A stretch of 58,831 nt of DNA, filler included, from Sphacelaria rigidula (lineage: Eukaryota): NCBI GenBank assembly GCA_964200075.2. It is 4 parts of 4 records of this genome, joined end to end, with 100 filler letters (N's around TTAATTAATTAA, not from the genome) between each part and the next. Parts side by side here need not be neighbours in the genome. Positions count along the whole stretch, not along the records: positions 14,737 to 29,372 come from CAXNAA020002133.1; positions 29,473 to 44,102 come from CAXNAA020002134.1; 2 more parts are not named here. One strand, written 5' to 3'. This document shows positions 8,301 through 44,202 of this stretch, in pieces (the stretch's first letter is position 1; every line of letters begins with the position of its first letter). The position numbers and the translations under genes are program-made. Below the pieces are notes generated by a model, which had not been told where the DNA came from, did not search any database, and saw only the letters and a list, made by a program, of their open reading frames with translations.

Positions 8301-11300
8301 TCCGGGTTAGTCATCAACACGTACTGTAAACGAGAGGTTCCGTGTATTTAATTCACCGTCGGTGCGTGTATCCCGTTACCACGACTGGATTTGTAATCGA
8401 TCACGTCACGTCATTTGCGACAACCAACCGATCAATCTGTCACATAGTGAGTGACCCATGCTCTGTAACTAAGGAGGGAAAGATGTACGTGCGCGCTACC
8501 CCGCAATTGCCACAACTACGGCAATGTTGAAAAACGACAGCTGAAAAGGCGACGTTCCGAAATTCACAGCAATCCACGGCATTCCAGTCCACTTGTAGCA
8601 CATGTATTAAATGTATAACGTCAGCCAGCAGCACACTGTCAGCTAGCTCAATGCATGGGCACTTCACAAACATGATCACATTGACATCCGCCAGCGACTG
8701 GTGCGATCAGTGTGGATTTACGGCACAAAGCCATGCGATTCGAGTGTCGACAAACTCCAACGGCAACAGCAACAGCAACAGCAACAGAACACGCTCGGGG
8801 GTGGAAAATAACGTGACTTGTGATGGGAGATGGACTTTGGTCGTCCTAAACTCACCTGGCTACGGGATGACTCAAAAGCTGTTGTCGTGTAGGGGGGGTC
8901 CATAGTAGATGCACGCATCGAATCTGCCCGACAAATTAGGTGTGAAGAGTGTCAAGAGACGCCAAAAATGTGGCGAACGAACTGGGCGATATCGCGGCAG
9001 CAGATATTCTCACCAAAACTACCTCATTGGGACATGAAAAAAAGGGCAACAACGGGACGAGTAGATACTGTACAAAGAGACGCGTACACAAGGGAGCTGG
9101 AACACGACAAATAAGTGACATCGTACGACATGACTCTTCCACAACCGCACACAATCGTGGCATGGAACCATTCCATCCCCCAAAACAACCCTACACTGGC
9201 ACACTTATCAAGGTAAAGTACCGCGCGTTAATCGTAATCTACGAAGCCGCTTTGCACGGGAAATGGGGAAACAACCTTGCACGGTTCAGCTATTCATGGA
9301 TTCAGGGTTTTGCCAACTTACGCGATACCGCGCAAAATATCCGAAAACCGCAGTGACCTCGGTTTGTTGACGGCGACACAAACACCGACGACGGCCCTGC
9401 ATATTTCTCCCTCTCTCACCAGGTTGATGATGTTAGGGAGAGCCTGAGCCCAAGCAGTAGCAATCGGATTCACTGCGCTGAGGCCAGACAAACCCGCCCG
9501 CACCATAGCATCCAGGTTGCCCCTGAACGACTTGTCATCCCCCACCGACACCCTTTGTGCTAGCCCGTGCAACACAGTAAGCGGAGCGCGCAAAGTCTGG
9601 AAAGCGGTGGCAGCCTGCACCGTACGAGGTGCTGTCGGGGCGTAAGCCGTCTCGTCTACGGGAAGGTCCGGAGTAATTCCAAGTCTTGAAAGGAAAGTCT
9701 GCCGTGGGTGTGCGAATGGAGAGGGTACGGGAGAGCAGGTCATCATCTCTGTGCAGGAAGTCAGTGCGAGGGTGATGCCGGGCACGTCTATCCAGCGAAT
9801 GAATCGTCAACTTTGGGCGCGTATTCCCTACTCGACACAACATCTGGCAACGCCTGGAAAGCTGTTGTGCGCCCTACAGATGGTTGTGCAATGTGCTCTG
9901 ATATTCCAACTGAGCGGCACTAGACGACACGCATTCCAAAGAGACGCATTGACGTGCAGTGAACTCCTCACCACCTTAGCAACAGGTTTCAGCCTTCGAC
10001 AACTCATCTACCGGACCATTTGTGAACCTCACCCCTCACGCGCGAGGCCGCCGTGCGGAACAGGATTGCCGACCGACTTTCAAAATTTAGTCAATCCCGG
10101 CGCTATAAAACCCGAAATGATGAAACTGCAGAGCGGCGCGAAAAAACACAACGGAAACCAATGGAATTGCGCGGGAAAATCGTGCCAAAAAGTACGTCCG
10201 CTTTGCGGCCCTGGATAATTTACCGGCATAATATTACGCTTGCTCATTCATTGCGATCTCTTTGTTCTAATTCAAAATTCTACAAATTTACAATTTTTGT
10301 CATCAAAGCTGAGCAAAAACTGACTGCTTGCAAGCACCACCCCCCATGACCGCAGAGCGCGTACCTCGTGCTTCCTAACCCCCGACTGACAGAATTAGGG
10401 ATGTTAGCGATAATCCTAAGGATATCCATTCTTCTCATATCAACACTAGTCCTCTTGGGCTACATTTGGTCAGGGATCAAATCGAAGAGGTTGACATCAA
10501 CTCAAGGACGTTGTTGTTGACGCACATGGATCGCCTGGAGCATGACCGTTCAGCGAGCCGAAATTAAAGGCCTAACTACAGAAGGGAAAAACGACCGGAT
10601 TTATGAAGCGAAAAGTAAGAATCTTCGACGGCAAGGCACCAAGAGCGGTTTTGCATCATGACACTAAAATACTGCAACGGTCACATGATATATCAAGAGC
10701 ATGCCCTCACCTCCGGGGAGCTAACCGCCTCGGTTACGTCGTTTCCTGTCCACACTGACATGGGCTCCTTGAGCATATCCAGAACGAAAATCTTCCGCTG
10801 TTCGTCATCCTTGACGCTATTGCTTACTACCACCTGACGCAGATCAAGAGGATAGTATTCGCACCAACCATGGCATCGCAGGCAGGATGTGTTCAGGATT
10901 TTCCGCCCAACATCGTCCGCAAAATCAGCATTTTAGAATTTTAATAACACGATTTATCAAGTTCGCATGTAGCCTGACAAAGCGCTCCGTTGATGATCTG
11001 TTGCACAGCGACTAATTTTGTTGGCAGGTGAGTTGTTCTGTCTCATAGTGGGTTCTTGAGCGATTCCAGAGTACAAAGAGGCCCGCAGGGCACCGCATGT
11101 ACAAGGCGAGGAACACGGCTGCGCACCATCGCGGGGACCACCTCGTCCACCGTCATATGACGAATGGGATTCAAACTAATGATCGTGCTTAGGCACCTGT
11201 CGTAAAATTGGTTGATGTAACGTTTTCGGCAGTTTGCGATCTTGAAATGAAGTTCCGATATTAACTTCACCCACATCACAAGGCACACGAGGAATCTCAG

Positions 11301-13580: not shown

Positions 13581-14636
13581 CTGCACTATACTGAAGGATA
13601 TGAAGAGTTGGCAACTGTTTCAAAGCAGCGTGGAGAGGAGGCGGCGCGCATGTTCTTCCATGCCGTAGCCATTACACAATTGACTTCGCATTCCTACGAA
13701 CCCAGGACGGAGCACGCCGGATTTTCGCCGGACCAGGCTCGCAATCAATCATCGAGCGCAAAGCGCCGTGATGTGTGGGGCGCATCGCATAAAAGGTGAG
13801 TCGCATCTAGCTAATATTGTTCGGCCCGTAGTGTATTGAACATCTTGCATGAGGATAACAACCTACGATGAGTTGCTTCGTTTTCTGGTATCGGTGATTC
13901 CAGAGAAGCAGTCACATGTCACGCAATGCATCATGGCTCCCACCGTGAAGGGGACGCGCGCGTGGGGGTGGAGGTGGGGGGTAGATAATGCTCTTGATTG
14001 ATCGGTCATGTTGTATAAACTGGTCCGCTGTAAATCTAGCTGCGGTCGCGAGATACTAGATGAAACATGCAGAGTAAACCGCACGATAAAAATAAGTAAA
14101 TAAAATTTTCTGTACGCGTTTGAAAGCCGGGTGTAGCTTGGAATGTTGTACGGTGTACGGTCTAATACCACCCCGGCCAATTTACGAGTCAAACTCGATT
14201 TTCTGCAGCAAGACGAGGGTCTGCCCGCACTGCGACAGAAGTTCCCCATTTTCCGAAATATGTCGACGAGGCGTTGTCAATGACACGACTTTCGACGGCA
14301 AGTATTTTCTTCCGCACTTGACGATATACAAAAGATTAGGGTTCCTACAGTCCCACGTGACACGCTGCACAACGTACGACATGGCTCCCGCCTCCCCGTA
14401 GCTTCCCGTACGACATCCTCATCATTTGAACACCTCGTAGTATGATCATCCCCTTGGCGCGGTTTTGAGCTTCTTTACTTCGCACACCATGGTATATCTC
14501 GACCACCACAACGGCTACCGCAAAAAAACGCGACCGAGCAAAAAAAAAACTGTAATACGGTTGCCTAGGGTACGCAGAGAGGAGGGAGGTCGACAGCGCT
14601 ATTGGCACGCGAGGCAAAACCCTAGAGGGAGAACGG

Positions 14637-14736
14637 NNNNNNNNNNNNNNNNNNNNNNNNNNNNNNNNNNNNNNNNNNNNTTAATTAATTAANNNNNNNN
14701 NNNNNNNNNNNNNNNNNNNNNNNNNNNNNNNNNNNN
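14637..14736. other. Assembly gap: 100-nt N spacer with TTAATTAATTAA linker
   Basis: An identical artificial spacer occurs three times in the window. Confidence 0.98.
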
Positions 14737-17700
14737 TAATGAAGCGCACGATGTATGTGTCGGCCGAAACCAGGTTAGCGGAGTGGGTCTGACCCAACCA
14801 CCAGAGGTTGTCGCTGCCTTTGAACCAAAGGTAGCTGCCTTTGAGCAGAAGTCGCTGGTTCGCGAAGAACTTCGTCTTACAAGTCTTGGTGGGTACAAGT
14901 TCGTAACCATCGGCGACGAAGCGTGGTCCCTGATTACGGTGAAGTTCGCGGGCTGCTGCGCCACGACGCATGTTGCGATATTTCTTGTTGTGAGCCAGAT
15001 GCTGATGTTGGGATTGCGTCCAGTAAAGGAGGATTGCACGGCGGTGCAATTGCAGGTCGATTCGCGTTCCCAAGACGCTCTCCGAAGACCGTGCAAGTGT
15101 GTCTAATACATGACAGCGATTTTGCCACCTCAACCACGGGTTATCTGGTGGCCGGAGATGGAGGACACGGTCAATCGAAGGGGCTGTTCCGTCACGTCGT
15201 CGATTGTAACGTGGTAGGGCAGGAACTTGGGCGAGTAGCTGTTGAGAACATACTGTGTGAGTCCGGCAGGTAGGTACTTGGGCATGCCACTTGTATCATG
15301 CAGGCTCGTGCAGGGTTTGCATCTGTGCACGGAGACGCGGGGCTTGGTGTCTTTGCCCTGGAAGTCGTGAGGCAAGTCGAGATAGAGCAGTTTGTCACCA
15401 ACGGGTTTTTCATCCGGTGATGATGACAATGATCCGACTGTCAGGATCTCGAATGGTCCTGTCCAATTGAGGGACATTTTTGTCTTGAAAATTGTTTCGT
15501 TGGCTGCCTTGCTGGTGCCTTGGCGGATGATCGACAAACTGTTGTAGATGCAAACCCAATCACCAACTTTCTAGTTGAGGCGTTTGTGCATGAGGTTGTA
15601 GAGCAGTGTTAGATCTCTCTAGGCGCGAGGCGTTGATAGCGTGTTGTTCGCGCACGAGGGTAAACGCTTTGCGTTGGCGCGTATGCGCTAGCTCGTGGTA
15701 GGATATCTGATCCTGATCCAATCCTTGGTGGCCGTCGAACGTGTGTCCCCCGAACACGGTGATAGGCAACCGAGGGTAACGTCCAAGATGAAGTTCGTTC
15801 GGAGAAAAGCCTGTGGCGGCGTTAACCGAGTTGTTGGAGGACAACATGTTGTGCGAGCGATGTAGGTCCCAGTCATTTTGGCGGTTATTGACAACCATAA
15901 AGAGCATCTGGGCCATGGTGTGATTAACTCTTTCGGTACCACCGTTACCGTTCGGGTGGTAGACGCTCGCGGCAATTTTGTGGATGCCCAGGAGCTTGTA
16001 AAGCTTATCAGAGACATCTGAGCGAAATTGCTGACCATTTTCTAAAAGGAGTCGCTTCGGGCAACCGTAATGCTTAATGTAATCGTGGACGAATATGTCG
16101 GTCGTTCCGGCGGCAGTGAAATCTGCGGCGGTTACCGCGTACATGGACGCGTGGCGGCTGAAGCGGTCAGTGAAGAGTAAGATGTAGGTGTTGCCGCGAC
16201 CTGTGGTCGGTAGAGGGCCAAAGTAGTCAAAGAACACAAGGTGGTCGGGCTCGTCGGGGAGTCCCATAGAGAGACGGGCCAGCGTACTGTTTGCCGTGAA
16301 TTTTCTCGGGCTTGGCATTTGAAGCATCGCCAAATCCAGAAACGGGTTGAAATTTCCATGCCAACCCACCAGTAGAAGCGTTCCAAGAGCGCGAGAGTGC
16401 GGGTGATGCCAAGGTGGCATGACAAGTCTGTGTGGCAGCCTTTCATGACCCAGGGGCGCAGTATTAATGGCACATATTATATGCGCGTCGGTTCGTCATT
16501 GAGTAGTCGTGCGGTGCGTCCCGTAGTTGAGGCGGCAACTGCGCCCGTCAACGGAGTGGGCCGACGCACGAGTAGTTGCACACCTTCATCCGTAGTACAA
16601 AGGGTACCTTTACGCACGAGCTCGTATACGTCAGAAATAACTGGTGGTGGCAGTGTGCCAACCGGGGCCAAAAGTGTGGATGGAAAAGGAACTGGACAGT
16701 CGACTTGTAAGTACCGGATGGCTGCGCGACATAGCGGTTCTGCGTTTTGTTCGCGAACCCAATCGCGGTGGAAGTAGCTGTCGAGAAACTCGCGTAGTTG
16801 ACCTTCCGCTGGCGAGCCGACCAAACGTGGTGGGGCAGGCGGCGGGGAAATAGGCGACGGGGCGGAAATGCTGACGTCAATATCTGTCCCGGAGGCAGGA
16901 GCTAGGTCGTCAGCACCGTGCTCGGGAGCGGTAAATGTTGGCGGCGCCGTGGTAGGCGGCGGGGCTGTATTAGTGCGCGACGAAAATTGTTCATGGCGCG
17001 TGGTGCACGTTGCAGGAGTTTTCGCGGAGCATAGCATGCTGGTCCATGGAACTTGTGCTGCGTGGCTCGTGGGTTTTTGTAGGTGTTATCGGTGGCGGCG
17101 GGGCAGTCGTTGTGGTGCGGGCGGCAGACCGAGAGCGCTTGTTGTCGGAGATCGGGTGGATGACTGGGGGTGTGTCCGCGAAGAGCTTCGCGCGAGTACC
17201 GAAAGTGCGGAAATCGACAAAATCGGAGGTAGTGGGCTTTAACCCACCCAAGACGGCGTCATATGGCAGAGGGCGAGGTCCTCCCATATGCATACCGGTT
17301 TCCGGGCACTGGGGATCGAGGATGTAAACAGGCGTTGAAAAACGTCTAATCGCGTAAATTCCGGGTTCATCGGGTTCCGTTACACGGCAAGCCGGGCTGG
17401 AATCTACGGCCGTAGGCGGTAGAGGTAGGCGAGAAAGAAGATCAGCGTTCCCGTTGGTTTTGCCTGGACGGTGCTTAATGGTGTACTGGTATGCTGTTAG
17501 AAACTCCAACCATCGTTGTACACGCGGGTTGTGTTCGCCAACCTTGGCGAGTTGTTCGAGTGCTACGTGGTCTGTATAGATCTCAAGGGGCACGTGAAAC
17601 AGATATTGTCGAAGGCGCTCGATGGCCCAAGTGAAAACTTTACCTTCCAGTTCTAGCGAGCTCGAATTAGCCTCGTTGGGCAGGGTAGCCCGGCTGATAT

Positions 17701-19800
17701 GGAGGATGGGTCGGACGGAGCCATCAACCGCAGGTTGATTCAAAACTACTCCAAATCCGTTTGTGCTGGCGTCAGTGTGGAGTTGGAAAAGGCGGGAGCC
17801 ATCTTGTACTGCCTCCCAGTCAGGAAAGCAGAGTACCGGCTTCTCGGTAGGCGTCTTGAGCAACTCGCGGGTAATATTCTCCATTTGGTTGTGAAGGAAA
17901 ACACGGCTCCTTTCTTGAGTAAGTCAGTAAGGGGGCGAATCCGTTTAGATAAATTCGGCAAAAAATTGGGGTGGTAGGATAGCCCGCCCAACAATGAGCG
18001 AAGTTGAGAAATGTTAGTTGACATCGGCACATCAGTCATCGCCTTGACTTTGTTTGTATCCGGATGCAGCCCTGCTGGCGAAATGGAATGCCCCAAGAAA
18101 TCCAAGTCAGTCGCACCAAGGCGAGCTTTAGATGGAGGCAGTTTCAAATCGTGCGTGCGTAGGCGAGAGAGAAATTCTCGTACAGTGCGTAAATGTGCAA
18201 TAGGTGAGGCATCGAAAGCGATAGCGTCATCCACGTGCATGATGATGTGGTCGAGGCCCTCGGTGACGTGTTGCACCTAGCGCTGAAAGCAATCCGGGGC
18301 AGTGGCGGCGCCTTGTGGCATCCGAAGCCACTCACAGAGTCCGGACGAGGCACAAAAAGCCGTCAGTGGGGCTGTGTCAGGGTGTATAGCATTCTGAAAA
18401 TATCCAGAAGCGAGGTCGAAGGTGCTGAATATTTTGCCTTCGCCTAAGGAGTCGAAGACTTCATCAATGCGGGGAAATGGAAGTTTGCCGACTACAGTGA
18501 CGCGGTTCAGCCGTTGGTGATTCACGGTTATGCGTATGTTTCCATCCTTTTGGGGGGCTACCACGAGGGGCGAGGCCCAAGGAGAGGAGGAATGTTGGAG
18601 TAATCCCGCTCCCAAATACGCATTCAAGACGGTGTTAACTTTCTTCGTAAGGGTCGGGTTTGTTCGGTATGGCCGAGAAGAAATCGGCGAGACACCGGGT
18701 TGAAGGGTAACCTTAAAGGGCAGTGTTTTGCAGTGCCCAAGATCCGTCTTGGATCGGGAAAATCGGTCTTGGTACTGTAGCAGGACATTGCTGAGTTCTC
18801 GGGTGACTGCCGGTTCCCAGCCGGGCCCATGAAGGTCAAAATTGATGTCGCGCATGTGTGGCGGTAGTTGGTCCCATATGTGCAAGAAACTATTAATCTG
18901 GTGATAAGCGTTGAAGCACTTCAGCAGGAGGATCGGAATTTGACTGGGCAAGATCCGCGGTGTAGACCTGAGGTGGAGTCGCAGAAGCGAGATCGAAATA
19001 GGGTTCATCGACACAATGGACTGACTCCGCCGGAGATGTGGCGTTTGGCGCGGCAGGCTCTCTTACGCACGTCTCGAGTGGGATGTACATCAGGGGAGCG
19101 GTGGCGATTCCTAAAACATCGCCGGGTTCCAAATTAGCATGACCCGTAAGAGGGAGGAGTTGTTGTCCCGCCGACAAAAAATGTTCTGTGTCGGCTGGTG
19201 CGCCAGTACGGAGTAACATTTCGGCAAGATATTGGCCTGTAAGTGCTGGTATGCCATTTCGGCGAACTGGTGCAACTTCTGAAAGTTGGGGGTCGTCGGA
19301 GAGTGTAGTACCGACGCTACCGTTGTATCGTAGGTGGTAAGCATCTCCGGTTGCTTCAGGATTCTTCTGGTAAGCCAGGGCGCCGTGGAGAGTACCAAAG
19401 GGCTCGAGGTTGAAGTCTCCACGAGGCGTGGAATGTGGCGTTAGTGGTGGAAGCGTGCGGTAGGTGCGTTTATTAAACCGCTTATAGCTATCTCTGCCCA
19501 ATAATATGGCGTGATGCATTGTGCTGTCGGGGACAATGTATGCCCAGACTGCCAGGCTGGCAGATCAAATGGTGTGGTGAAAGAATTGTACACTGAGACG
19601 TACGGATTTATGTGTCGTCAGTGGTGCGGCCGAATCACCGAAATCGCCCCATACTCGAGGTTTGGTGGTGGTTTCGCAAGCTGAAGTAGCAGCGCCAGTC
19701 TGTTTCATGTGTTTCCATGTTGATTCTCGAATAAATTTTTGCGGCTGCCGCTGTCCAACAAGGATACGCATTTCGGAGGCGTGATAGCGTTTGGACCGGA
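14737..19800 (-). pseudogene. pol: Gypsy pol (protease, reverse transcriptase, RNase H, integrase, chromodomain-like C-terminus), disrupted
   Basis: ORF fragments 19565-19816, 18893-19519, 18277-19014, 17746-18276, 16991-17884, 16477-17037, 16132-16473, 15560-16420, 15130-15537 and 14737-15133 concatenate in Gypsy domain order. Confidence 0.95.
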
Positions 19801-25640: not shown

Positions 25641-26304
25641 AGATATACTACGTGCAACGGCCGAAGCTTGTATCCGGATATACGGGATACTGAAGCCTAA
25701 TAGCGCCTGGGGGGACCTTGGGACCTGATTTATTTGAGTACTTTTATTCAAGCGAATTGCTGTATGTAACAACTATGTCCGGGGTCTGCTTAAGACAACT
25801 TATTTAAGTTGTGGCGGTAATAGCTATCAACGGAGCTCGGGATTGCGCGCAGAACAGACGTATGGCGTCGAAGAAAAGCGAGATCCAACTGTCTGTAGTA
25901 GCGTTGGTACGTGAAAGTCGTACAACTCACACGTGTTCCGGGTGTAGCGTCACGGGCAGACTATAGGTGTATTGTCCCGGCATAAGCTGAGAAACGACTG
26001 GTGGTGTTCAATGAAAAATATGTTTTTTTGATGAGCACCAAAATCGTGCAGCGTGGGGCATTACAGAGCTTGGGATGTAGACCGCGAGATCGGACTGCGT
26101 AGTGAAGGACGAAAGCTTGTTACACAACGGAGTTGAGGCAACGTACGTATGTGAAACAAAGGTGAAGTTGTGCACAGCAGGGGCAACGCTGAGGGCGGTG
26201 CCGAAAACAAAGAAGTGCACAGGTAAGGGGCACTGGTTTCGAGTGCTGTCTGCTCCAAGTGAGTACGTAACGTAGGTTTGGAATGTGTCAAACGAGTATT
26301 ATCA
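25641..26304 (-). repeat. Putative 5' LTR (~660 bp)
   Basis: Starts TGATAATACTC and ends GTAGTATATCT (imperfect inverted ends) next to the PBS. There is no second LTR in the window to confirm it. Confidence 0.4.
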
Positions 26305-28199
26305 CGACGAAACCGTCCCGGAACAGTTGATTATTATTTGTTCGAAAGGGGGTCGATGAGAAAAACTTGCAGTTCGTTGTGAGGTGTATTGTTACTCACC
26401 ACGGTGATGTACAGCGCTGCTCTATAGCTGTGCGAAGTACACCAGAAGAGAACAACAACAAAGTAGCTACAAGCAACGAAGCTAAAGTGCCGGAACGGGT
26501 ACAAATCTCGTGTCCAGATGTCCGTGGTCACTCTCTGGGAGCACGGGTTGTACTGTTCAGTGTTTTCGTGAAGAAAAGATACAACAGTCGCGTACAACCG
26601 ATACTAAAAATATGAGAGCAGCAGATTGCTGACTTGGCAAGGAGCTCCGGTCAGGGACAGCGGCTGACTATGAGCAACAGTCCCGTTCTGTAACAAACCT
26701 GTAGTAGAAGACTTCTCCTGGTAGAAGGAAGGGCAATGAAACCAAATACGCGAGCCAAGGATGGCTGGGCGCGTGGTCGTGCTGTACTAGATCACCAAGG
26801 GATGTTACGTTGTGCGGTCCGAACGTACCACCGTGCAACGTGCAGGTGTATCTATCACAAAAAGACAAAACAAAAACACAGCAGGACGAGACTGGCGTGC
26901 GGTGCGCGTTGACCCAACGTAGCACAAGATGTGCGGTCAAGCGTTGCAGCAAGCGGCGAGCAGCAAGGCACGAATACTATGTACGATGTAGCGTACAGGT
27001 GGGAAGCTTTGCAGGAGCTAACGACTGACTATCTAGCAAACGGCTAGGTAGATTTGACTACGAAAATCCCAAAAGCCGCAACGTGAAATAATTCGACAAA
27101 ACCTACGGTACGCAGCTCAACAAGCGGGGTTTCAATCGATGCTAAATAGGAAACGCAATTGCAACACAAAAGGAGCTCCTTCGTCAAACGCCAAATGCAA
27201 TAAGGCTGTTGTGCTGTTATAGCAAGGACACAGCCTGCAGTCCAGGGTACAGGCTCACAAGGCAAGTGGACAACAGTCAGGCTGTCACAGCTCTGCACAG
27301 TGCTGAACACAGGCTCAGCACAATATGTCAGACGAGTTCTCACGCGATGGTTCTTCACTTCTTATTGGTTGTCTTGTCTCGAACTTACAGTATCTAATCG
27401 ATCAATCCAACCCAAACTAGTCAATAGGTCTCACCGATGCTTAGACTTCTTTTGCTGGAAAGCAGTAGGGGAGCGGTAGGTAGTGAGACGGTAGGGGAGC
27501 CAGATCTGCAGAATAGCAGATCTGGCTGTCCCCATCTCTACCATATACAAGCTCATATTCGTCCCCGACCAAATCTGAACAGACCTGCAGTCTTGAATAC
27601 TGGAATACCCGAAATACCGAAAGCCAGACTCGACAACGGGTCTGAAGCGGCATGACAGAAGGCTAATATGCATCTTCATGACAATCGCGAAAATCGGTAC
27701 ATGTTGCTATGCCGGGCGACCTCTATGCAGACGTCAGCCAGTCCAGTAAAGCGACGAAAGCTAACTATGGTCGGGTTTGCCTGCCGTACTGCCGCCAGCG
27801 TTGCTTGAAAGCCACAAGACCTTTGAGGTTGGCGGTTGATGGCGTGGGTGTCAAATGCAACGACAAGTGGTTGATCATAGAGCACCCTTGTTCTTCGTGG
27901 GTTCATATCTCGCCCCAGGTGGTGATGCGTGACCTCGTCACATCGGAATTATTTCTTGAAAGCTACTGTACCCAGGTGTTCACGCAGCCAGCGCGCGTGC
28001 TTCAGATTGCAGCATGGACGCACCCCTCTGCACCACGCTCGCAACGGATTGATCACTACGACAGGAATATTTTTTCACTTCGCATGCCAAGAAGGTCTCC
28101 ACAAATGTTTGATGTCTCAAACACCCCCCTCAAACTGGCGTCTCGCACGCTGTTGTCGTTGGGCACCCAGAGGATCGCTCACATACATGTCGGGTAAAA

Positions 28200-31100
28200 T
28201 CAACGATGAATAACACCCCCCAAGTTCAAATTGGATATACCTGTTGTTTTCGCCGCAGCACCGTCCTTGCTGGCATGTGTGTGACAGAGAACAGTAGTAG
28301 CGGTGACGGGAACATTGTCCTATTTTTCAACGACATGTGTTCAGGGCACAGAGGGGCGTCCTGTCCAAAAAGAGAGGCGGAGAGAAATCCATCTTCGCAT
28401 CAGCCACAGGCAAGAAGAGACGGAATCTCTCCGCACCTCGATGTTCTGGCACATGGAACATTGGGTACATGCTGGTAACATCGATGACGCCAGTCTCTCG
28501 AGCGATTGGTAATCGCCGAGCGAGGACACACAGAGGACACGGGCGAGGAGCTTCCTCTCTGGCGTTGCTTCTCTCTCTGGTGATATCGTCATCGATAAGC
28601 GTGTACACCGCACTCGTTAGGTGCACCTAGCTACAGCTGCTTGACTGCTGCGGACATATGAGGGGGAAGATGGCTTCGCTCGGTCGTAAGTGTTTCGCGT
28701 CATCCCTGCAAAAAAGAAATGCCACTTCAACCTCATTTTTTATATGGACCCCATTTTTAAGGATCCTCTGTTTACAGTAGTAATGGGCGGTCTAACTATT
28801 CATTTTTTGGCATTTTGTTTATTTTTCGTAACTAACGATTTATTTGGGCTCTTTTCGCTTGCCATCGCTTATCACATTGGGTATCTGAAAATATTTTTAT
28901 CCGCTCCACATTCCAAGAAAAAAATATATATATGCATTCGATATTGAGTGACTTACGGGCTGACCGGTCATCGGAGATCCTGCCACGTCTCAGCCCAGAT
29001 TCTTACTCTTTTGTATTTTGGGTCGATCGGGCCTGTCCTAATCATGTTTGTAAAGAAAGGTACATTTTCATTTTTTCGAAATTCCACCTACTTATTGCAC
29101 CAGAGCCGAAAAAGTGTGTTTCACTGTCGATAACACCCTCCTGATAAATGGGGTATTTACTCGTATCGACTGATAACACTAACTAACACTGACTTGGGCA
29201 CTGTGTTCCGAGGATGATCTGTTTAGTGTACCAAAATCTGCCGATGCTAGCAATTTCGAGTTATATCAAAGAGTACGAGGAAACCCCCAAAACACCCCTA
29301 AAGAACAAATTGTGCGAATTGAGGTTTAACTTCGAGATGAGGTTCAAGCCTAAAACAGTGCTTTCCCCACACNNNNNNNNNNNNNNNNNNNNNNNNNNNN
29401 NNNNNNNNNNNNNNNNTTAATTAATTAANNNNNNNNNNNNNNNNNNNNNNNNNNNNNNNNNNNNNNNNNNNNTACCCTATCCGCGCTCGTGTGGCGGATA
29501 CCGACTCAGATGTGTCTACCCTGTTTTCAGCAACATCGATGCCGCGGTTGCACCTGTCGCGAACCGTGCAGACCGTGATACCTTGGATACGATGTCCGTG
29601 TCGATTCCAGGGCCGCGGGACTGCAACGGCGATGGTGCCCATCGGATGCAAGACTTCCAGTACCTTTTCAACGAACCGCCTGAAGTATCCCTTGTTGTCA
29701 TCATTTGTCGTGCTCAGCATTGTTTTTTCGACATCGATAGAGACTATGATAAGCTTCGGCGGTCTCTTCACAGGGAGTGGCTCTTGTTGGTCAATTAGAG
29801 CGCAGTGGCGGCGGAGTAGATTATCCTCGTGTATGCTCGTGTGATGAGCCCTGTACAATATCACGTCGCAAGCACGCAATAGCACCGTCAGTTTTCCTTC
29901 GTTGCGCACTGGTCGTCCGCACGTCGCGGGGTGTAGCGTGTGTTCTCTGATATAGCTTCTCCCGAGAAAGTGGTTGGGTCGGGGGGGGCAACAACCAACA
30001 CGTAAGATCGATATGACAAAATATCCTCCTATTGTGCAGATTGGAATATTCATGCTTCTGTTTGTTTTCGTCCATGTCGAGTAAACAAGGCCCTCCATGC
30101 ACCGTGGAATCGAACATCATGTGGTGGATAGCCATTCATTGTTTGGCTGGCAGTTTTGGGCTGGTGTTGGGGTGGGGGCCAATCCGGCGTAATTCTTCGG
30201 CGTGCGTCCCACTACGGTGGCTAAGCTGGCGGCTGCACCGTCAGGTTTTCATAGTCGAGCAGTGCGCGAGGTTGGACGAAAGACAGGAGAAGATACAAAC
30301 AGCTGCGCTTGACAGTCCCAGTATCGCATGTCGACTGACTTATGCATGCTGTCACAACCGTCGTCCAAGGGAGCAATCTAAAGGTAAGCTTCAGTCGACG
30401 ACACAGTCTCCACAACGGCAACACATCCTCGCACCTTCTGCTTTTCACGGTGGGACCGGCAGGGGGGAGCATTTGCCCTGCCTGTGACGATTTCTTCCCC
30501 TTCCTTTTAGGATTCCCTCCGCCTCCGACCCCGTCAGTTCTGTCCCCTTTCCTCTTCTGGCGCCCCGGCTCGTCCTCGCAGACAAGGCAGAGACGTCGCT
30601 TCGTCTCGGCAAGAGATGCATTCTCGGATACGGGTACAAGCAGCTCACAGAAGGTCTGGTGCTTCATCCCGCAGTGTACGCAATGGTGTCTGCCATTGCG
30701 AAGACGGCATGAAAGTGTCGAGCGGTTGGCGGTCTTCCAGGTAGGGTGATTGTTGTTTCAATCATTACACGTGGCGATCTTAGAACGGTAGCATTGTACT
30801 TCAGGAGGTCAACTGGTGTGCTCGGCACCGTAGAAACGGCTTGCGTGTTGATTCATGCTATCCCTTCTCACCTGACGTCTGATGATGGGTCGCACGAGGG
30901 ACATAATTCGTCTTTGCGGCTGCCCTCAGCCGGTCGTTGATAATCGCTATCATCCTCCTCCGATTCACCAGCATCCTTGTCGTCGCCTTCCTCGTCGCCC
31001 GCGTTCGCCAACTTCAAGCGAGCGATGGTGTTGTTGGCGTCTCACCTCTTCCTCCAGCTATCGTTGTACCGCCTCAGGGTCCCTCTTTGTGCTTTCTGCG

Positions 31101-31200
31101 AAGACGGGCCGTGGTTGAAAATGTAGGTGAACCACCTCGTGGAAATGTTTCACTTATCTCCTCATCACGTGGGTGTACCATCCTTGTTGTGCCCATGACT
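28200..31200 (-). pseudogene. Decayed spliced gene encoding a PHD-type zinc-finger protein (exons ~31200-30872, 30689-30435, 29850-29664, 28626-28437, 28240-28200)
   Basis: Four consecutive GT-AG introns with matching phases (2,2,0,1). The spliced peptide reads ...GDEEGDDKDAGESEEDDSDY...CPSCDPSSDVR|HHCVHCGMKHQTFC-x20-CLVC...KRKGKK...R|AHHTSIHE...FVEK|VHLTSAVY...CPLC...HR|GISNLNLGGVIHR*. This is C4-H-C3-like spacing with the His position shifted or mutated. The first exon has in-frame TGA codons. Confidence 0.68.
29373..29472. other. Assembly gap: 100-nt N spacer with TTAATTAATTAA linker
   Basis: Artificial spacer. Confidence 0.98.
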
Positions 31201-31329
31201 GGCATGCGCCAATTTCGCGCGTCGCAAGTCCGTTCTGCGCGATTTGGATTTATTTATCACAGCAGCATGTCCGATCCACCTTACGTTTGTATCGTCTCGG
31301 CGACCTATCGCCCGAATTACTCAGTATCC

Positions 31330-34324
31330 TGCCCGGAATATGCTGCGTTTTGGTGCAAACATCCTGTATGAAGTGTGACAAATGTCCCGATGTGTTTTCT
31401 CACGACCGTATTGCTGCAAAGACGGTATTCGGAGAGTTGTCTCTTCCGAGACCGCAGGAGGTGTCAAGGCATATATCGAGTTACTTATCGCCCTTCTAGG
31501 GTTTCTGTCTTGAGCCGGGACGCCATAACAAGTACGTGAGTAACTGATTCCTTGAAGATCCATTCATGTTGCTTCAGTGGTGCATATGACTTCTGCTTGT
31601 CGTTGTTGGCGATCACCACGTCTGGCAGGGGATACGCGGAGCGCCAAAAAGCTAGGGCAGTACTTGTGGAAGGGCAGTTCGTGGAATTCTTCCTGTCTCC
31701 CCTCACAATCGGAGGAGGTCAGTCCCTGCTCTCCCACACGATGTGCACGCACTCATGGCATTCGTGAGCCAGACGCTGCCCGCGATGACTTGCGCACCGC
31801 GGGGGACTCAAGACACTCGGCTATCTTGCTTTCTTATCCGAGCGATCTTCTCGGGAGACCTTTTCGTATCCCGACCGAGAGTAAGAGATGAGTTGTTACG
31901 GCATTCCTCGTGGCCAACAACCCCCGAGAATACTGACATTCGCGCCCTGACGCCGTCGTTGCTCGCCGCTGTGCAGGGAGCAATCTTATTTGCACTTCAA
32001 TCCACCTCGCGCTTACCCGATTATTCGACTTGCACGGCACCGGCGACACATCAACTTACATCGATGAGCTGTATCTGCAACTCGACAACTGTGTTGGAGA
32101 AAAGAAGAACCATATCGTGCTGGGATACGTCGGATGTCTTGTGGCCCGTGGGACAATCGGCCGCGTGGAGATCAATTTCATGATGGTAGGACATACCCAC
32201 ATTATGATAGACAAGGTCTTTTCGAGGTGCGTCTGGATTATCCTTGCAGACAACAGTGACGTGTGGAAGGAATCATCTTGCTTTGTGTCACGGGAAAAAA
32301 TGGCCGTTCCTTATACGAACCGTAGTGAATCCAACCAAGACCTTGATTTTATCCAGTACACGAACCGACCCACCCATCACAAGACACGGTGATGGTTACA
32401 TCATCTACCCGCGACCCCGCTGTTTCTCCCCGTGACCACGTCAAACTAGATTGTAATTTATCCGCGAATACGACGGGGGGCAAGGAGACACCATCCCCAC
32501 CGCACTGAAAGGGATGAAGGAAATCGTTCGCCTTCTACAGTGATACTGCAGGCGTGAAACCGCACCCATCACTCAATACTCCCGCCATATTTTAGACTTT
32601 TGTTTTCGTTCATGTTTTGGTATTTTTTTCAGACGAGATATCTCACTGAACGAGTACCTCTGCTGTTGTTGACACGGGTCGCACAGGTAATGCTTTGCCT
32701 CCACAGACGCGGTGGGCAAACCTCTAAGAGCAGATGAAATATCGCCCCCGGCAGCGATATTCCACGCCGACACGGTGTCCAGATATATATGCGATTTCGA
32801 CGCGCCGTAGGTGGACTGGACGTGAATCCACGATGATCCACAGCACACGTACTTACGCTCCAAAATTCCATAAAGGTCAAACAAACCGGCCTGATTTCGT
32901 ACTGGCATATTCAGGGATATGTTTTATGCGTACAGCGAGGTGGCGATGAGAAAACATTTAGATGTATATAGCAAGAACCGACGACAAAATGATTGGAATG
33001 TTTTACCGGGATTTCCATTCACTGCAAGGGAGTTTGCCTGTTCACCAGAAAGCAGTAGGCGGAAGCGTTTCGCAAGGCATACAAGGCACTGGAGGTGTTC
33101 ACCACCACTCTTCGCTTCCTCGGCAACTTTAAAGGAGCTGTCGGTGGAGGTGGTCGTGTGCTGCCCATTCGTGGCGTGACTCAGCCCCGTTCATTCGAAA
33201 TCCGCCCAGCGAGGACGGAGCAGGTGACCGTCGGTATGAAGAAGCATATGCAAGCTACAGTCTTCACGGGAAAGACGGCCGCCGGGATCTACGAGGGAGC
33301 CCCTCACCCGCTCTTCCGCATGGGTGTTCCAGATCTGGAGTGCGCACCTGCATTCGACCTGAAGGAGGTGGATGCCGCACAGCGAGATAACATACTGGCT
33401 CGCTACAACGCCGTCCACAGTCGGCTAGCTGCCCCCTACCCCCTCGGTGCGTTGCACCTCCAAGCACCCCAAGTGGTGACACTGTATCCTGATCGCTGTG
33501 TACTCTATTTATTTTGTTTTCGCTGCGGACAGCGGGTCCAAGTTTCTCACCCTTATTTCTCATATCATTTTCCCCACCGCAGAAGCGCATCCGAGCCATG
33601 AATACCTCGGATGCACTGCCTCCACCCTCCCGTGCGACGCGCAGATTTCGACAAATAGCAGGCCGTCAAGGACGACATGGCGACGTCCCACCGACTTCTG
33701 GTCGCGAAAGGCTCAGTACCGTGGAACCTTCCGTGTCATTGGTTCAAGCGTAATGGCATGCAGTCATCTGGAGGGTCACGGGAAGAGAGAGCGGGGGCAG
33801 ACGGGGATGTTGATGTAGTCGAGGGGTCTGTGGGGGGGCGTAAGCCGCCTGTCGGTGAGGATCCGGGAAAAGGTGGTGTCGATAACTTAGTGCTAGGTAG
33901 CGGGGGCGACGGAGATGGCCATTCAGCAGGGTATGTTCCCTCGTTCGACAAGGTACATTTTGTTTTTTTTCTCGGTGACAAAGCTCCGTTTTTGGTGGGT
34001 AGGGTTACGGACAAGCGCGAGGGGACCGATTGCGAAGCAGAAGTTCAGACGCGCTGGTGGTCGCCGGCCACCTCCGCCATTCGAAACAACGCTTCTGCCT
34101 ACAACATCGGCGAATACCGCAAAGGAAAAATCGCAGCAGATTACAAGACAGTGGGAAACAGTGAAGGGTGTACAATGGGCAGTAAGAGCAAGAGACGAAA
34201 GTTAGTGCCGGACGTAAAGTGGATGCAAGCAGAGCTGGTTGTCGCTTCGTGCGAGAAGCCAAACGTTGGTGACAGGATTCCCCAGCCAGTATTGGATACA
34301 ATGGAGAAGAAGGCCAGGGGTTGA
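31330..34324 (+). mobile_element. Decayed intron-containing DDE transposase of the Sola1/DUF7869-like type
   Basis: Diagnostic block ELYLQLDNCVGEKKNHIVLGYVGCLVARG...EINFMMVGHTHIMIDKVFSR (32060-32227, followed by a gt donor). Upstream: CMKCDKC (31365) and GAYDFCL...AVLVEG...IGGGQSLL (31578-31740). Downstream: IRGVTQPRSFEI (33170) and PFLVGRV...VQTRWWSP (33985-34065). Stops and frameshifts present; TIRs not found. Confidence 0.75.
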
Positions 34325-37300
34325 TGCGTAGCATTCCTGTATTTTCCTCATCGCAGCAGTCGCGGAAGATTGGGGGCTTCGACTATCGTCGTGATGTCGT
34401 GATTCAGCACGTGAGGCCTCGGGTTGCCCGGGTGGATCCCTAGGTGATCTGTTGGCGTGCGACCAGCATAATCAAGGGCCCATGCACCCGTGACGAGGTT
34501 GATCTATTTCTTGCCAAGAGTTCCTCCCACACTATCGCCCGTTGTAGGGCTGGTGTTGTGTTGAGTGGTCCATTGCAGTGCCATGTATGCTCGAACCTGG
34601 TAAAATCCGCACGGATATTAGATATCATTGCCTTCTCTAGAACGCGTTGTCACAATATTCCATGATATCCCATTTTTATATCCTGATTTGGTATGTGCTC
34701 GTCTCCGGGATAGTGAAAAGCTACTTCTCTCCTCATGCCCGTCAGTGACGATCAGCTTGACGCCATATATTTTCTGCTGGACACGGGCTCGAGGCACCAC
34801 AGTGAGAACATCATAGACAATCAATCGCTCTCCCGTGGACAAATTGTTGAAATGGTTCCCGCTTTTTCTTCTGACCATGGTAAAGTTTGACGCCGTCCGT
34901 CGCCCGCAGCCAACCAGGGATGGGCGGCATGTGCAACCACGGACGCACTTCCTACTCCTCCCCAAAATAACACATCAGGAGCGTCGTGCGGTACTCTTGA
35001 GGGCTTTTCGCTATTCAACGGCTAGGGTCTTCAAACCTCATTTCATTGATGAACCTCATTTTATAGAATCCCCTGTTTTTTGTAGTAGCTTGCCACTGAG
35101 GCCCTTGATATCCCCGAGTGGGACATCGATGTGTAGCTGTAAACACACGCCAGTGATGGAGGCAAAGAGAAGCACACACGGAATGAAAATTGGCAAAGTT
35201 AAAGCGATTTATCAAAGACATTCTCAGTCAGCGCTCTACTCAATCTCACGAAAACGCTGTTGAGGGAGTAAAATGTCGAATAAGGACGAAAAGGAAATTT
35301 GCAGGATTTTTTTTCTTTTGCTGTAAGAAGCGGCCTTAGACCGCGAGGAGTCCATTTGAATCATGAATACCCTTCTTAAGTGAAATTGATGCCGGTTCAA
35401 TAGATGACCCACTCTCGCTGCCCATGTGTTGACACCGGTGAATGCGTTGGTCATGTTCTTTATTGCCCTCATGTTGGCGAAATTTGGGTTGATTGATCGA
35501 CTGATTGATTGATTGTGACACTTCAACTGACCTCCCAGGGATCCAGCAGTGGTCACATGATAGGCGTATCCAAGATGAAACGAAACTGAAACACTCGCTG
35601 AAGAAAAATGGAGGAACAGAACAAGTAGAACAGAAACAACTAGTACACGAAGATGTAAAAACAAAAATATTAATAATGGCGTTTCTCTGTCACACGGCTT
35701 CAGCGTACAAGATCTTGCGGAGAACCACACGCGTACCCGGACGTGAAAAGCAAAAGACCGTGGAAAGGAAAATATTGCAGCTCATCTACTACAAAGCGCT
35801 CTATTTAAGGTATGGGCTTTCTCATCTTTGAAGATGCGCAATGAAGCGAGATACCACATTGCTCTGGCGTACACCGGCAGGTGAAAGTGGGCATATCCGC
35901 GGAATGATTTCATGTGGGAGTATTTGGGATTGGGTAAATGGGTTTTGACTACCACGGTTTGCACAAGAGTACTTACTGTTTGTGTGTGGTCCTTCGGTGG
36001 ACGGGTCTTGAAATATTGTGTGCATGGGTGCAGAGCAACCGCTGTGGCATGGTTGCTCAGTAAAGTAGTCGTGCATGTTGATTCACTTCCTCTGTCTTGA
36101 CAAGTCAATTGCTTGCAACTGGATTTATCGTCGAAGCTCATGTTCCGCGGCGCGGCGAGCTGACAATGGCATTTCGCCTGCAACGCGAGGTATGCGCAAT
36201 ACTAGTACTGTATAGAGAGAGGACATCTGACCAGCGGATCGCCGTCTCGTGGAGACGGGGATCGATACAGTCACCGCGGTATGGCTTGTGCCAATCATGA
36301 AGCTCGAGTGTAAGTCGAAAATATTGAGATTTGAAACCATAACCAAGCAATTGATCTACCCCCATTTTGTCGACACCGAGGTACACTGAAAGGAGCAAGC
36401 AAAAAAAGGATATGTATGTGCTATACTACTATGGCAACTTCAACGAGTACTACAGGCTAACGATACATGTGCATGCCCCCTCCTCATTACTCCACTGGTT
36501 ACAGTGTCGTCGCTGGCGACCCCCCCAAACCCACCATTGCGAGGTCAATGGTGTTAAGACTATGGCATGCATGATCATGAGTACACCCAAACCCACCATG
36601 ATTGGTGGCAGTTTCATGAGCGGTGTGCTGCTGTTAACGACGCCACCACGTGAGCCCAAACTGCCAGCTGCAAACCCGAAAATCTCGGCATGTCAGCACA
36701 AACCATGCCTTCACTATTTGCATGGTACATTTCTGGTGAATGTGATTGCCGCACAACAAGCATCCATCAGCGCTTGGGAGCGGTGTGATAGATTTTGTCA
36801 GCATTGTTTCTGCCTTCCCACAGAACTGCAGCACAGGCGCCGGCCACCCCTATTCCAAGTGCAACTACCACTGCGGCACGAGTGCACTTCAAGTTACTAG
36901 CACGGTGCCCCTGGTTGGACTGATCACCATTGGCCATGAACAGCTCCTCAGCATGGGGTTTGTGATCCCGACTGCCAAACCTCCCGCTGGACGGAGCAAA
37001 GGGAAGTCGACTTAGACGGGTGCATTCCGTGGGGTCTTCAGGAGGGTCGACGACCGTTAGTTGATTTTTCGGTCCGATGCCTGTTTTGAGGAACTCGATG
37101 CTCGTCTGCAGGCAGGATTGGAAATAAAACAACAAAATACGGCACTTTGTTGGTTGGTACGTCCGGCGAACAATACGTCGATCACATCGTGTGATTTTCC
37201 TGTGCTTGGGTTGTGCGGTTCACATCTCAAGAGTTGTTTTTGGATGGGGACTTCGACTCCGCCCGTCTTGCATAATCGTCAGCAATGCTCACACTCGCGT

Positions 37301-39269: not shown

Positions 39270-42200
39270 CAAGATGGCATCAAGGTCGTCAACAGCTCCA
39301 TCATGGGAGAGAACCGATTCCTCACATAGATGAAGTCTTCGATTCCCTAGGCGACGGGAAAATATTCAGCACCTTCGACCTCGGTTCTGGATTTTTCCAG
39401 AATGCCATTTACCCTGACACAGTTCCATTGTGAGCGATCTGTACATTTTTCGGGCTCTACGAATGGCACCGAATGCCACAAGGCGCCGCCACTGCACCAG
39501 ATTGTTTCCAATGATGAATGCAACGTGTAACTGAGGGCCTCGAGCATGTCATGATGTACTTGGACGATGATATCGCCTTCGATGCCTCTCCTACGGCGCA
39601 TGTCCGCACTTTACGAGAGTTTCTTTCTCGCCTACGGACGCACGATTTGAAATTGTCCCCTTCCAAAGCTCGCCTTGACGCGACTGGATTTAATTTCCCG
39701 GGTCGTTTAACTTCATCAGCCGGCCTACACCCGGATACCAACAAAACGTCAGGGCAATGATTGAAATGCCCATGCCTGCCAACATTTCCCAGCTTCGCTC
39801 ATTGTTGGGTGAACTTTAATACTATCTCAATTTATCGCCAAATCTGTCCAAACGGATCCGTCCCATTTTCGACTTGCTTCGAAAAGGCGTCGCATTTGCC
39901 TTCACTATAGATTTGGAGACTATTATTCGCGATTTGTTAAAAACGCATACTGAAAAAAACGATCCTCGGTGTTGCAGACTGGGGTGCAGTCCAAGATGGC
40001 TCTCGCCTCTCCCAACTGCACACAGACGTCTCCATCGACGGGTTTGGTGCGGTGTTGAATCAACCTCAACTTGATGGCTCTGTCCGACCCATCCTTTATA
40101 TCAGCCGTGCCACCCTGCCAAACAAGGTCGACTGGAGTCCACTAGAGTCGGAAGGCGGAGTCATTATTTTGGCTATAAAGCGCCTTCGAGTTTATTTGCT
40201 CCACGTGCCTTTCCAAATTTACACGGGTCACGGAGCACTCGAACAACTCGCCAAGGTAGGCGAATGTAATCTGCGTGTGGAACGCTGGCTGGAGTTTCTG
40301 ACAGCTCATCATCAGCACACTGTCAAATCCCGCCCAGGCAAACCAAAGGGGATGCTGAGCTTCTCTTCTGCCTGCCCCTTCCCTCAACGGCCGTAGACTT
40401 CAACCCAGCTTGCCGATTAAGTGAACCCGATGAACCAGGTGTCTACCCAACCCGGCGTTTCTCAATGCCCATTTACGCCCTTGACCTTCATTGCCCAGAG
40501 ACGGGTATGCACATAGGCGGCCCTCGCCCCCTACCGTATGATGCAGTCTTGGGTGGGCTAAAACCCACAGACGCCGATTTCGTCGATTTCTGCTCTATCG
40601 GCCCCCGCGCGAACATTTCAGTTCCGCCGCCCCCCATTATTCATCTCATTTCTGACAATACGCTCCCTTGGTCTGCCGCCCACGCCAACCCCCCCCGCGC
40701 CACGCCGCCACCGACAACACCTACCGCTCCCTCGAGCAACGTAGAACCGGCTCCCCGCAAAAGCGCACCATGAGCCTCGTCAACACCCGCCACGCGCAAT
40801 GCACGCAACAAGCGCCGATCGCGTTCTCCGGCGCGCACTACTTCGACAACGCCGCCCTCCGCGGCACCGTCAGTGCCCACCCCTTCTGATGGTGGAATGG
40901 ACACCTCCGCCCCTGATCCCGATGTGGATATTGACGTTGGCACTTCCGCCCCGTCCCCTGTCCCACCTCTCGCTGAGCCACCATGCCTGGTCGGCTCTCA
41001 GGCGGAAGGTCAACTTCGCGAGTCCTTTGCCAGTTACTCCCATCGTGATTGAGCTTGTGAACAACACGCAGAACCATTTTGCCGCGCTACCATGCGCTAC
41101 TCACAACTTGACTGCCCTGTCCCTATCCCGACCACTGTTCTGGCCCCGGTTGGTACGCTGCGACCACCAAACGCTCCTGGTGTGTATGATCTTGCACACG
41201 TAGGTACTACGTTTACCACTGATGACAGTGTCCACCTGCTTGTCCGACGCCCCACGCCCCAGCCGGGTGCAATTTCAGACGCGACAACTGAAGGTCATGC
41301 ATCCCTCCTCGATGATTAACCCACCCGGATAAATGTCCCATTTTTGATGCGACCGTGGGTCATGAAAGGCTGTCACACTGACTTGTCTTGCCACCTTGGT
41401 GTAACGCGCACACTAGCGCTACTGGGGCGTTTCTAGTGGTGGATGGGTATAGATGTGTTCACCCGTTTATGGATTCGGCGATGCTTCAAATATCAAGCTC
41501 GCGAAACTTCACGACAGACAATACGTTGGCCCGTCATTACTGTCGCACTTCCCAACGTCACTGGTTACCTCGTGTCTTTTTACCAATTCGATCACAAATC
41601 GTGGCAGTACGTACGTTTTACACTTCACTGACCGCTTCAGCGGTCATGCGTCCATGTACGTAGTCACCGCTGGAGACTTCACAGCGGCAGGAACAGCTAA
41701 TACCCTCGTTCGCGACTAGATTAAGCATTATCGTTGCCCGAAACGCCTTCTCTCCGATAACGGTCCAAACGTTTGCTCCGACCTCTCGGACGAACTATGG
41801 AAGCTCCTGGGCATTCACAAGATTGCCACGAGCGCCCACCACCCCAATGGCAACGGTGGCACTGACAGAGTTCATCACACCATGGAACGGTCGTCAAAAC
41901 GATTAGGATCTCCATCACTTCTCATATCATGCTGTCTTACAAGAACTCGGTCAACGCCGCTACCAGTCTCGCTCCGAACGGGTTATATCTCGGACGCTAT
42001 CCCCGATTGCCCATCACCGTGTTTGAGAGAAACCCCTTCGATGGCCACCAAGGCCTGGATGAGGATCAGACATCCTACCATGACCTGGAGCGTGCACGTC
42101 AGCACAAACGTTTCACCCTCGTACGTGCTCAGCAGGCTATTAACGCTTCGAGCTTTGAGAGGTCCGACTCTCTACAATCTGATGCACAAACGCCTTACTT

Positions 42201-44102: not shown

Positions 44103-44202
44103 NNNNNNNNNNNNNNNNNNNNNNNNNNNNNNNNNNNNNNNNNNNNTTAATTAATTAANNNNNNNNNNNNNNNNNNNNNNNNNNNNNNNNNNNNNNNNNN
44201 NN
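44103..44202. other. Assembly gap: 100-nt N spacer with TTAATTAATTAA linker
   Basis: Artificial spacer. Confidence 0.98.

Follow-up and report, generated by a model that had tools for sequence, protein, structure and literature searches.

Does a decayed transposase gene of the brown alga Sphacelaria rigidula share one mobile element with the spliced gene that lies beside it on the opposite strand? The question arises from positions 28200-34324 of a 58,831-nucleotide stretch of this genome (assembly GCA_964200075.2), which is referred to here, at its full length, as the window. A preliminary description had proposed a head-to-head pair, a five-exon PHD-finger gene on the minus strand and an intron-containing DDE transposase on the plus strand, and had suggested that they form a two-gene transposon. 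Both genes were found within 29473-34324, the left end of one 14.6-kb contig (29473-44102). The reading that we favour, with moderate confidence, is that the locus is a decayed fragment of a high-copy DNA transposon of the brown-alga type, and that this large element most likely also carried the spliced finger gene, on the other strand, as a passenger or accessory gene. Such a linkage is plausible, and we infer from the data below both that they moved together and what the finger protein might do.

By its sequence, the plus-strand gene is a DUF7869 DDE transposase, in agreement with the preliminary description. The open reading frame (ORF) at 31937-32392 matched Pfam PF25273 (DUF7869) with an E-value of 7.7e-21 and 75 bits (cut-off 26) over profile positions 36-114 of 192, and the rest of the profile is covered, through homologues, by blocks A and C. 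Block A (31480-31717) corresponds to the upstream portion of the catalytic domain and is followed by a donor GT at 31718. It was located by tblastn of the relatives P0017, P0016 and P0004, and P0017 carries it back to 31480. Block B (31977-32226) holds the DUF7869 core with the motifs DNCVGEKKN and GHTH, and lies between an AG at 31975-31976 and a GT at 32227-32228. Block C (33010-33472) matches residues 101-237 of P0004, with 60.6% identity over 32996-33406, and is also matched by P0055 and P0034. Block D (33662-34324), the C-terminal exon, has the longest open frame, of 221 amino acids, with its stop at 34322-34324. Its match to residues 307-344 of the Ectocarpus model P0034 is weak (E 2.4), and a collinear similarity at the exon start was seen by eye. 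The annotated Sphacelaria model P0004 is collinear with the gene over 31657-31734, 31973-32227 and 32996-33406 at 60-67% identity by tblastn. The blocks match spliced brown-alga models. The transposase introns are placed by homology, at positions common to annotated models of brown algae, no spliced RNA contig being shown for them. Sixteen aligned relatives extend to the end of block B; in 15 of them similarity breaks off at FSR or FSQ, which fits a conserved intron at that point.

A HMMER scan gave 1238 relatives, 44 of them below 1e-10, and the closest were fragments with 52-67% identity. The named closest relatives come from Sphacelaria rigidula, Choristocarpus tenellus, Ectocarpus sp. and Undaria pinnatifida. 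DUF7869 was the only family in all 26 long relatives scanned. The transposase was found in neither viral contigs nor prokaryote genomes. DUF7869 is presumably the transposase domain of Sola-1 elements, and the family is probably the Sola-1 of transposable-element curators; indirect links are the brown-alga relatives and the Ec32 family of Ectocarpus, which its curators named Sola-1. A search of the accessible literature for "DUF7869" found no paper, and literature searches on Sola1 motifs and on PHD second ORFs yielded nothing bearing on this locus.

The gene is heavily damaged. In-frame stops occur in block A (TGA, 31537-31539) and block C (TAG, 33056-33058), and the acceptor position of block C (33008-33009) reads GG instead of AG. 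The domain starts at residue 329-712 in 13 long relatives, and nothing recognisable was found upstream of it here. Judged by the two stops, the lost acceptor and the absent N-terminal third, this transposase copy is dead. It resembles the PF25273 proteins in that block B matches the profile and blocks A, C and D are collinear with members. It differs from them in that full-length members have 800-1400 amino acids, whereas here there is no recognisable upstream part and the frame is broken twice.

The minus-strand gene is genuinely spliced and transcribed. Parts of 29473-35500 were present in five public sequencing runs that are DNA or of unknown kind and in four whose RNA nature was guessed, and we mapped the contigs of two DNA-like runs from two studies (X1 and X4) and two RNA-like runs (X6 and X7) on this interval. 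A 1090-nt contig of X6 (record 17) mapped as three blocks, 29581-29849, 30434-30689 and 30872-31096. It differs from the locus at 9, 11 and 12 positions in the respective blocks (about 95-97% alike), so its source is a sister copy of this locus. The position of each jump is ambiguous by one base; once settled, it gives the minus-strand exons 31095-30872, 30689-30435 and 29850-29582, each with cag before it and gt after it (gtgaga, gtgcga and gtatca). Exon a (30872-31095) encodes an acidic patch and the first Cys pair of the finger (CPSC). Exon b (30435-30689), for which the homologue P0001/P0152 gives further support, encodes RHHCVHCG, a further Cys and CLVC, followed by a basic run. Exon c (29582-29850) is an open frame with a DxExT-like stretch and has its donor GT at 29581-29580. 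The intron that splits the finger (30690-30871, 182 nt, GT..AG, gtgaga..ggcag context) has its acceptor at 30691-30690, whereas the only acceptor visible by eye without the RNA contig was at 30735-30734. The other intron (29851-30434, 584 nt) is also of the GT..AG type. RNA-like coverage followed this structure: the depth in X6 and X7 was about 9-35 over exons, 0.25-2.4 in two repeat-free intron bins and 0-1.1 in the spacer bins at 31081-31482, while the depth in X1 and X4 was flat across exons, introns and spacer. This contrast argues that X6 and X7 are RNA. Three exons and two GT-AG introns, both crossed by the X6 contig, are confirmed in this way, but the five-exon model of the preliminary description is not; at least one of the four phase-matched joins in that model spans an artificial linker. 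The acidic patch, the intron-split Cys/His finger and the basic run that it had noted were all seen in the RNA-supported spliced product.

The finger gene extends beyond these exons on both sides. Both record 17 of X6 and record 24 of X7 break at 31096, where an acceptor AG stands at 31097-31096, and this indicates at least one further upstream exon. On the other side, 70 nt of record 17 beyond 29581 did not map in 29473-35500. A downstream exon cannot be on this contig, apart from its last 108 bases, as the contig ends at 29473. The joined frame is open except for one TGA at 31042-31044 in exon a, and no in-frame ATG lies between this TGA and the finger. We favour a nonsense mutation in this copy, rather than a coding start in upstream exons, as the explanation of the TGA. 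With this stop in the finger gene and the two stops and lost acceptor of the transposase, the earlier view that both genes are decayed was borne out.

The evidence for a link between the two genes is indirect, namely their depth in the DNA-like runs. Contigs at least 96% alike to the locus gave depths of 439, 428, 375 and 622 on the finger gene and 429, 356, 304 and 558 on the transposase, its second intron included. The spacer between the recognisable genes (31096-31479) and the introns stood at the same level as both genes in these two DNA runs from different studies; the spacer bins at 31081-31482 reached a summed depth of 725-796 in X1 and X4, as against 0-1.1 in X6 and X7. This even, high depth over both genes and the spacer indicates that both belong to repeated DNA. 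It excludes that the finger gene is a single-copy, syntenic gene of the host, one of the outcomes that the preliminary description had named as refuting its proposal. Most of the 4716 and 5248 mapped contigs are only 90-95% alike to the locus, suggesting an old, large family. The finger gene is repeated about as often as the transposase, as would fit a single repeat unit, although two repeats fixed next to each other could give the same picture.

The extent of the finger gene is limited by the layout of the window. Linkers of 100 bases with the format N44-TTAATTAATTAA-N44 occur at 14637-14736, 29373-29472 and 44103-44202, and the pieces between them measure 14636, 14636, 14630 and 14629 bases, in descending order. 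The near-equal descending sizes and the six-frame stop spacer suggest that the window consists of independent contigs of a fragmented assembly, sorted by length and then joined. The feature at 28200-34324 straddles the second linker (29373-29472), which has the same format as the other two and severs the earlier gene model, and everything to the left of 29373 is a different contig. The 3' exons that had been placed there (28200-29372, minus strand), including the C-terminal CPLC, which lies in ORF 28327-28626, are therefore an artefact of concatenation; since the layout is sorted by length, the two contigs are unlikely to be neighbours in the genome. No Pfam family was found on ORFs 28327-28626 and 28341-28616. 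Gene models, repeat pairs and synteny arguments that cross such linkers in windows of this assembly are void. A Pfam scan of the window covered 113 of 123 ORFs of at least 110 amino acids, the 10 ORFs inside 28200-34324 being left out, and 6 of the 113 carried a Pfam family. Eight of the 10 were scanned separately; 33267-33665 (minus) and 33480-33815 (plus) were in neither scan. The contig left of 29373 is dominated by a minus-strand remnant of a long terminal repeat (LTR) retrotransposon at 15563-19062 (rve, Integrase_H2C2, RT_RNaseH and RVT_1), which is of Ty3/gypsy type. An RT_RNaseH fragment was also found at 39941-40393 (plus), on the same contig as the gene pair.

What kind of protein does the finger gene encode? 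The ligands of the spliced product are C-x2-C-x9-C-x2-C-x4-H-x3-C-x19-C-x2-C, of which exon a supplies the first Cys pair and exon b the remainder, the acceptor at 30691-30690 leaving nine residues between the first two Cys pairs. Downstream of the TGA there are 16 D/E in 45 residues, and the basic run has 10 K/R in a 40-residue stretch and resembles a nuclear localisation signal. Neither of the two exons that make up the finger, nor the read-through ORF, nor P0152, a natural homologue, had a PHD or RING match at E ≤ 10 in Pfam, the intron-split finger having been scored in pieces. FYVE was the sole Pfam signal and stayed below threshold, with 14.4 bits (12.3 for exon b and 16.6 for P0152) against a cut-off of 27.8, over profile positions 22-63 of 67. 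The PHD consensus is C4HC3 with H-x2-C spacing, in which a Trp ahead of the last Cys pair is conserved, and FYVE domains carry the motifs R(R/K)HHCR and RVC. The finger shares with both types an eight-ligand Cys/His pattern of similar length. It has the C4HC3 ligand order that had been reported, while its H-x3-C spacing is off by one from that of PHD and no Trp was seen by eye before the last pair. Its RHHCxxCG stretch and R-L-C-x2-C end resemble the two FYVE motifs, whereas one Cys of the third pair is missing and Val replaces the basic residue after the third Cys. We therefore describe it as a predicted cross-brace Cys/His zinc finger of FYVE/PHD type, assigned to no single family. A protein-language Atlas search with exon b gave bacterial hypothetical proteins at a best score of 0.81, which is not meaningful.

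Few relatives of the finger protein were found. P0001 and P0152, from a 568-base contig of the European Nucleotide Archive, form one homologue cluster that is 75% identical over exon b and retains all six of its zinc ligands, with similarity ending precisely at the donor site. The finger exon is therefore present elsewhere in a second copy. Word-indexed searches found no longer relative of either protein among 82 and 609 candidates, which is weak evidence. None of 226 pattern matches in metagenome contigs and none of 597 in viral contigs was confirmed as the finger gene, P0152 had no match at E ≤ 10 in a PDB sequence search, and tblastn of the spliced product against the window returned its own exons only. 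A further domain of the protein would run off the contig end. Exon c matched no family in Pfam, PHROGs or NCBIfam, and nothing in the PDB at E ≤ 10. The Atlas led from exon c to NIF/FCP1-type HAD phosphatases with a score of 0.84 and the ten best hits in one clan, a level that one third of shuffled proteins reach, and by eye D-V-E-K-T follows a hydrophobic run where those phosphatases have DxDxT. By analogy with the accessory gene of an Ectocarpus element, exon c was also considered as a degenerate N6/N4 DNA methyltransferase, and this was dropped as no Pfam profile supported it.

Several observations weigh against the inclusion of both genes in one element. Depth summed over contigs does not measure copy number, and where two independent repeats meet, bins of 200 bases would not reveal a junction as wide as one 31-mer. 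We saw no second copy with both genes, the DNA-run contigs being only about 200 nt long; a self-comparison of 27000-36000 against the whole window also gave none. Metagenomes contained only eight distant DUF7869 loci, with single long DUF7869 ORFs at 30-49% identity. None of the eight carried the finger gene, and no match to the finger product was better than E 0.11. At these loci, leaving out L007, a near twin of L006, we scanned 23 of 63 ORFs of at least 120 amino acids; 8 of the 23 carried DUF7869 and none had a PHD, FYVE or RING domain. Likewise, none of 151 DUF7869 proteins contained the finger gene or one of these domains, although distant DUF7869 relatives are too remote to decide the linkage of the two genes. 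As the preliminary description had reported, no convincing terminal inverted repeats (TIRs) or target-site duplications (TSDs) were found: 26000-37000 holds 36 inverted pairs, of which the best outside the linkers has 36 nt at 72%. The left end must be off this contig, which starts at 29473 inside the finger gene. The divergent arrangement is also less simple than had been proposed. The recognisable genes do lie on opposite strands, with 384 bp between them (31096-31479) rather than about 100-200 bp. The 5' exons of the finger gene, however, must be situated beyond 31097, within the transposase or past it, unless this copy lacks them: 267 nt of record 17 past 31096 did not map in 29473-35500, and the promoter may likewise be inside or beyond the transposase or missing here. 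Finally, no run is on record as RNA, and the RNA status of X6 and X7 is a guess.

These observations bear most directly on the possibility that the finger gene belongs to a different repeat, either a nested or abutting transposon or a multi-copy host family, and merely neighbours the transposase without a role in its element. Fixed nested insertions of unrelated transposable elements, common in the giant brown-alga elements (PMC12477816), would also give equal depth, and LTR-retrotransposon fragments are at hand on the same contig (39941-40393) and on the neighbouring one (15563-19062). The eight distant DUF7869 loci that lack the finger gene, and 5' exons that are not where a simple head-to-head pair would place them, point the same way. 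Set against this are the even depth over finger gene, spacer and transposase in two DNA runs and the fact that the finger gene matches no known transposable-element protein family. We consider this explanation doubtful, yet the most serious competitor of a single large element. That guess about RNA opens the further idea that the spliced contig is a processed, retro-copied DNA version and that the window locus is silent. Spacer and introns, however, had a depth of 0-3 in X6 and X7 as against 9-35 over exons, while all were equal in X1 and X4, and this RNA pattern makes a retro-copy extremely unlikely.

If the two genes do belong to one large element, as we favour, what the finger protein would do in it is a separate matter. 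The preliminary description placed it in a two-gene transposon as a PHD-finger reader of histones that would help to target integration or to oppose silencing. The C4HC3 ligand order obtained with the RNA-supported splice, the acidic patch and basic run, and the repetition of the gene together with the transposase are in line with that idea, and Atlas PHD clusters did appear at ranks 7 and 17, with scores of 0.79 and 0.78 that lie below the meaningful level. Against it stand the absence of any PHD or RING profile match at E ≤ 10 with the exon peptides and P0152, the only signal being FYVE below its cut-off; H-x3-C and RHHCxxCG, which are nearer to the FYVE signature; the lack of a visible Trp before the last Cys pair; the CPLC C-terminus, which is an artefact; and the continuation of the protein into another domain that has no family match. 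A histone reader is thus very unlikely here. A more ambitious proposal is that the gene is a conserved, expressed accessory gene of Sola-1-like giant transposons whose nuclear protein joins the FYVE/PHD-type finger to an FCP1/SCP-like (NIF) phosphatase-like domain. Were this so, the target of a transposon-borne factor would be its own element's chromatin or transcription machinery, unlike the ParB-methyltransferase solution of Ectocarpus. Exon c has neither the profile match nor the DxDxT of the NIF/FCP1-SCP HAD phosphatases, and most of the putative domain would be off the contig; we regard the proposal as a long shot. Our best guess is that the finger protein would be a nuclear factor, encoded by the element, that binds nucleic acids or proteins, and not a histone reader.

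Some observations concern the surroundings of these genes. In block D, the stretch at 33899-34090 (hydrophobic-F-F..APF.VG.V...V..WW.P) is shared, by eye, with the C-terminal part of Ectocarpus P0034, and may represent a small domain, rich in beta structure, that is part of the transposase. A single-sequence fold of block D had a mean predicted local distance difference test (pLDDT) score of 31.3 and was unusable. Two RNA-like contigs of 960 and 1032 nt (records 21 and 28), about 91% alike to the locus, covered block D and some 480 bases beyond its stop codon (33797-34806) with a depth of 218-262, and record 5 is a further RNA-like contig on block D. The depth of 218-262 is 10-50 times the cover of other exons in the RNA-like runs, and a sister subfamily seems to express the block D region strongly. 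In the second intron of the finger gene, 30076-30276 had an RNA-like depth of 122-184 as compared to 0.25-2 in the flanking intron bin, and an unrelated expressed repeat or small gene may lie there. Further downstream, 34900-35300 is a very abundant short repeat with a summed depth of about 140,000-240,000 in DNA-like and 3,500-14,000 in RNA-like runs, where neighbouring sequence reaches about 500-2,000. It has more than 100 contig variants, with many loose ends at 35034-35189. It had no Rfam match and no clear inverted or tandem structure, and Rfam gave 0 matches on 29473-37000 as a whole. It is possibly a miniature inverted-repeat transposable element or an element like a short interspersed element. 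One DNA contig joins 35261 to 32553, in a transposase intron, and this suggests that the repeat also lies inside the transposase intron in other copies.

The locus may be compared with two known kinds of element. Like the PIF/Harbinger elements, it would have two separately transcribed genes, the second encoding a nuclear protein without catalytic motifs, provided that the proposed linkage is correct. The second gene of Harbinger is required for transposition. The transposase superfamily is another one, and the Harbinger partner is a Myb/SANT protein, whereas here it has a Cys/His finger. The arrangement differs as well: the Harbinger genes of Ectocarpus are tail-to-tail (PMC12477816), while the two genes here are divergent.

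The closer parallel is with the giant elements of Ectocarpus. Accessory genes of giant elements in brown algae are known to exist, almost all of them without a known function. According to PMC12477816, Ectocarpus has giant KDZ, EnSpm and Sola-1 elements, many with transcribed accessory genes and pseudogenised transposases. One of them, Sola1-1_Ec32, is 21.5 kb long and carries an additional gene, with a 282-bp imperfect TIR, ends AACCG..CGGTT, a 4-bp TSD and 1989 copies, and its accessory gene, on the strand opposite to the transposase, encodes a 1104-amino-acid protein that is ParB-like and a DNA methyltransferase. The family was named Sola-1 by the curators through blastp to a Repbase entry (PMC12477816). 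The locus studied here resembles it in belonging to the brown-alga lineage (Ectocarpus P0034 is among the relatives of the window transposase), in combining a DDE transposase with a transcribed gene on the opposite strand, in its high copy number, and in its pseudogenised transposase, which is frequent in giant families. It differs in having a zinc-finger protein instead of the ParB-methyltransferase, and in that the ends are known in Ectocarpus while the left end here is off the contig. Thus the two-gene element of the preliminary description is supported in part, by co-repeated depth and by the Ectocarpus precedent (PMC12477816). That a Sola-1-type element can carry a second gene in opposite orientation to its transposase is already published for this lineage, and the gene here is a different one. 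On present evidence the locus, a dead copy of a transposon, opens no new question; if the linkage holds, it adds one more type of passenger gene to those of the giant DNA transposons of brown algae.

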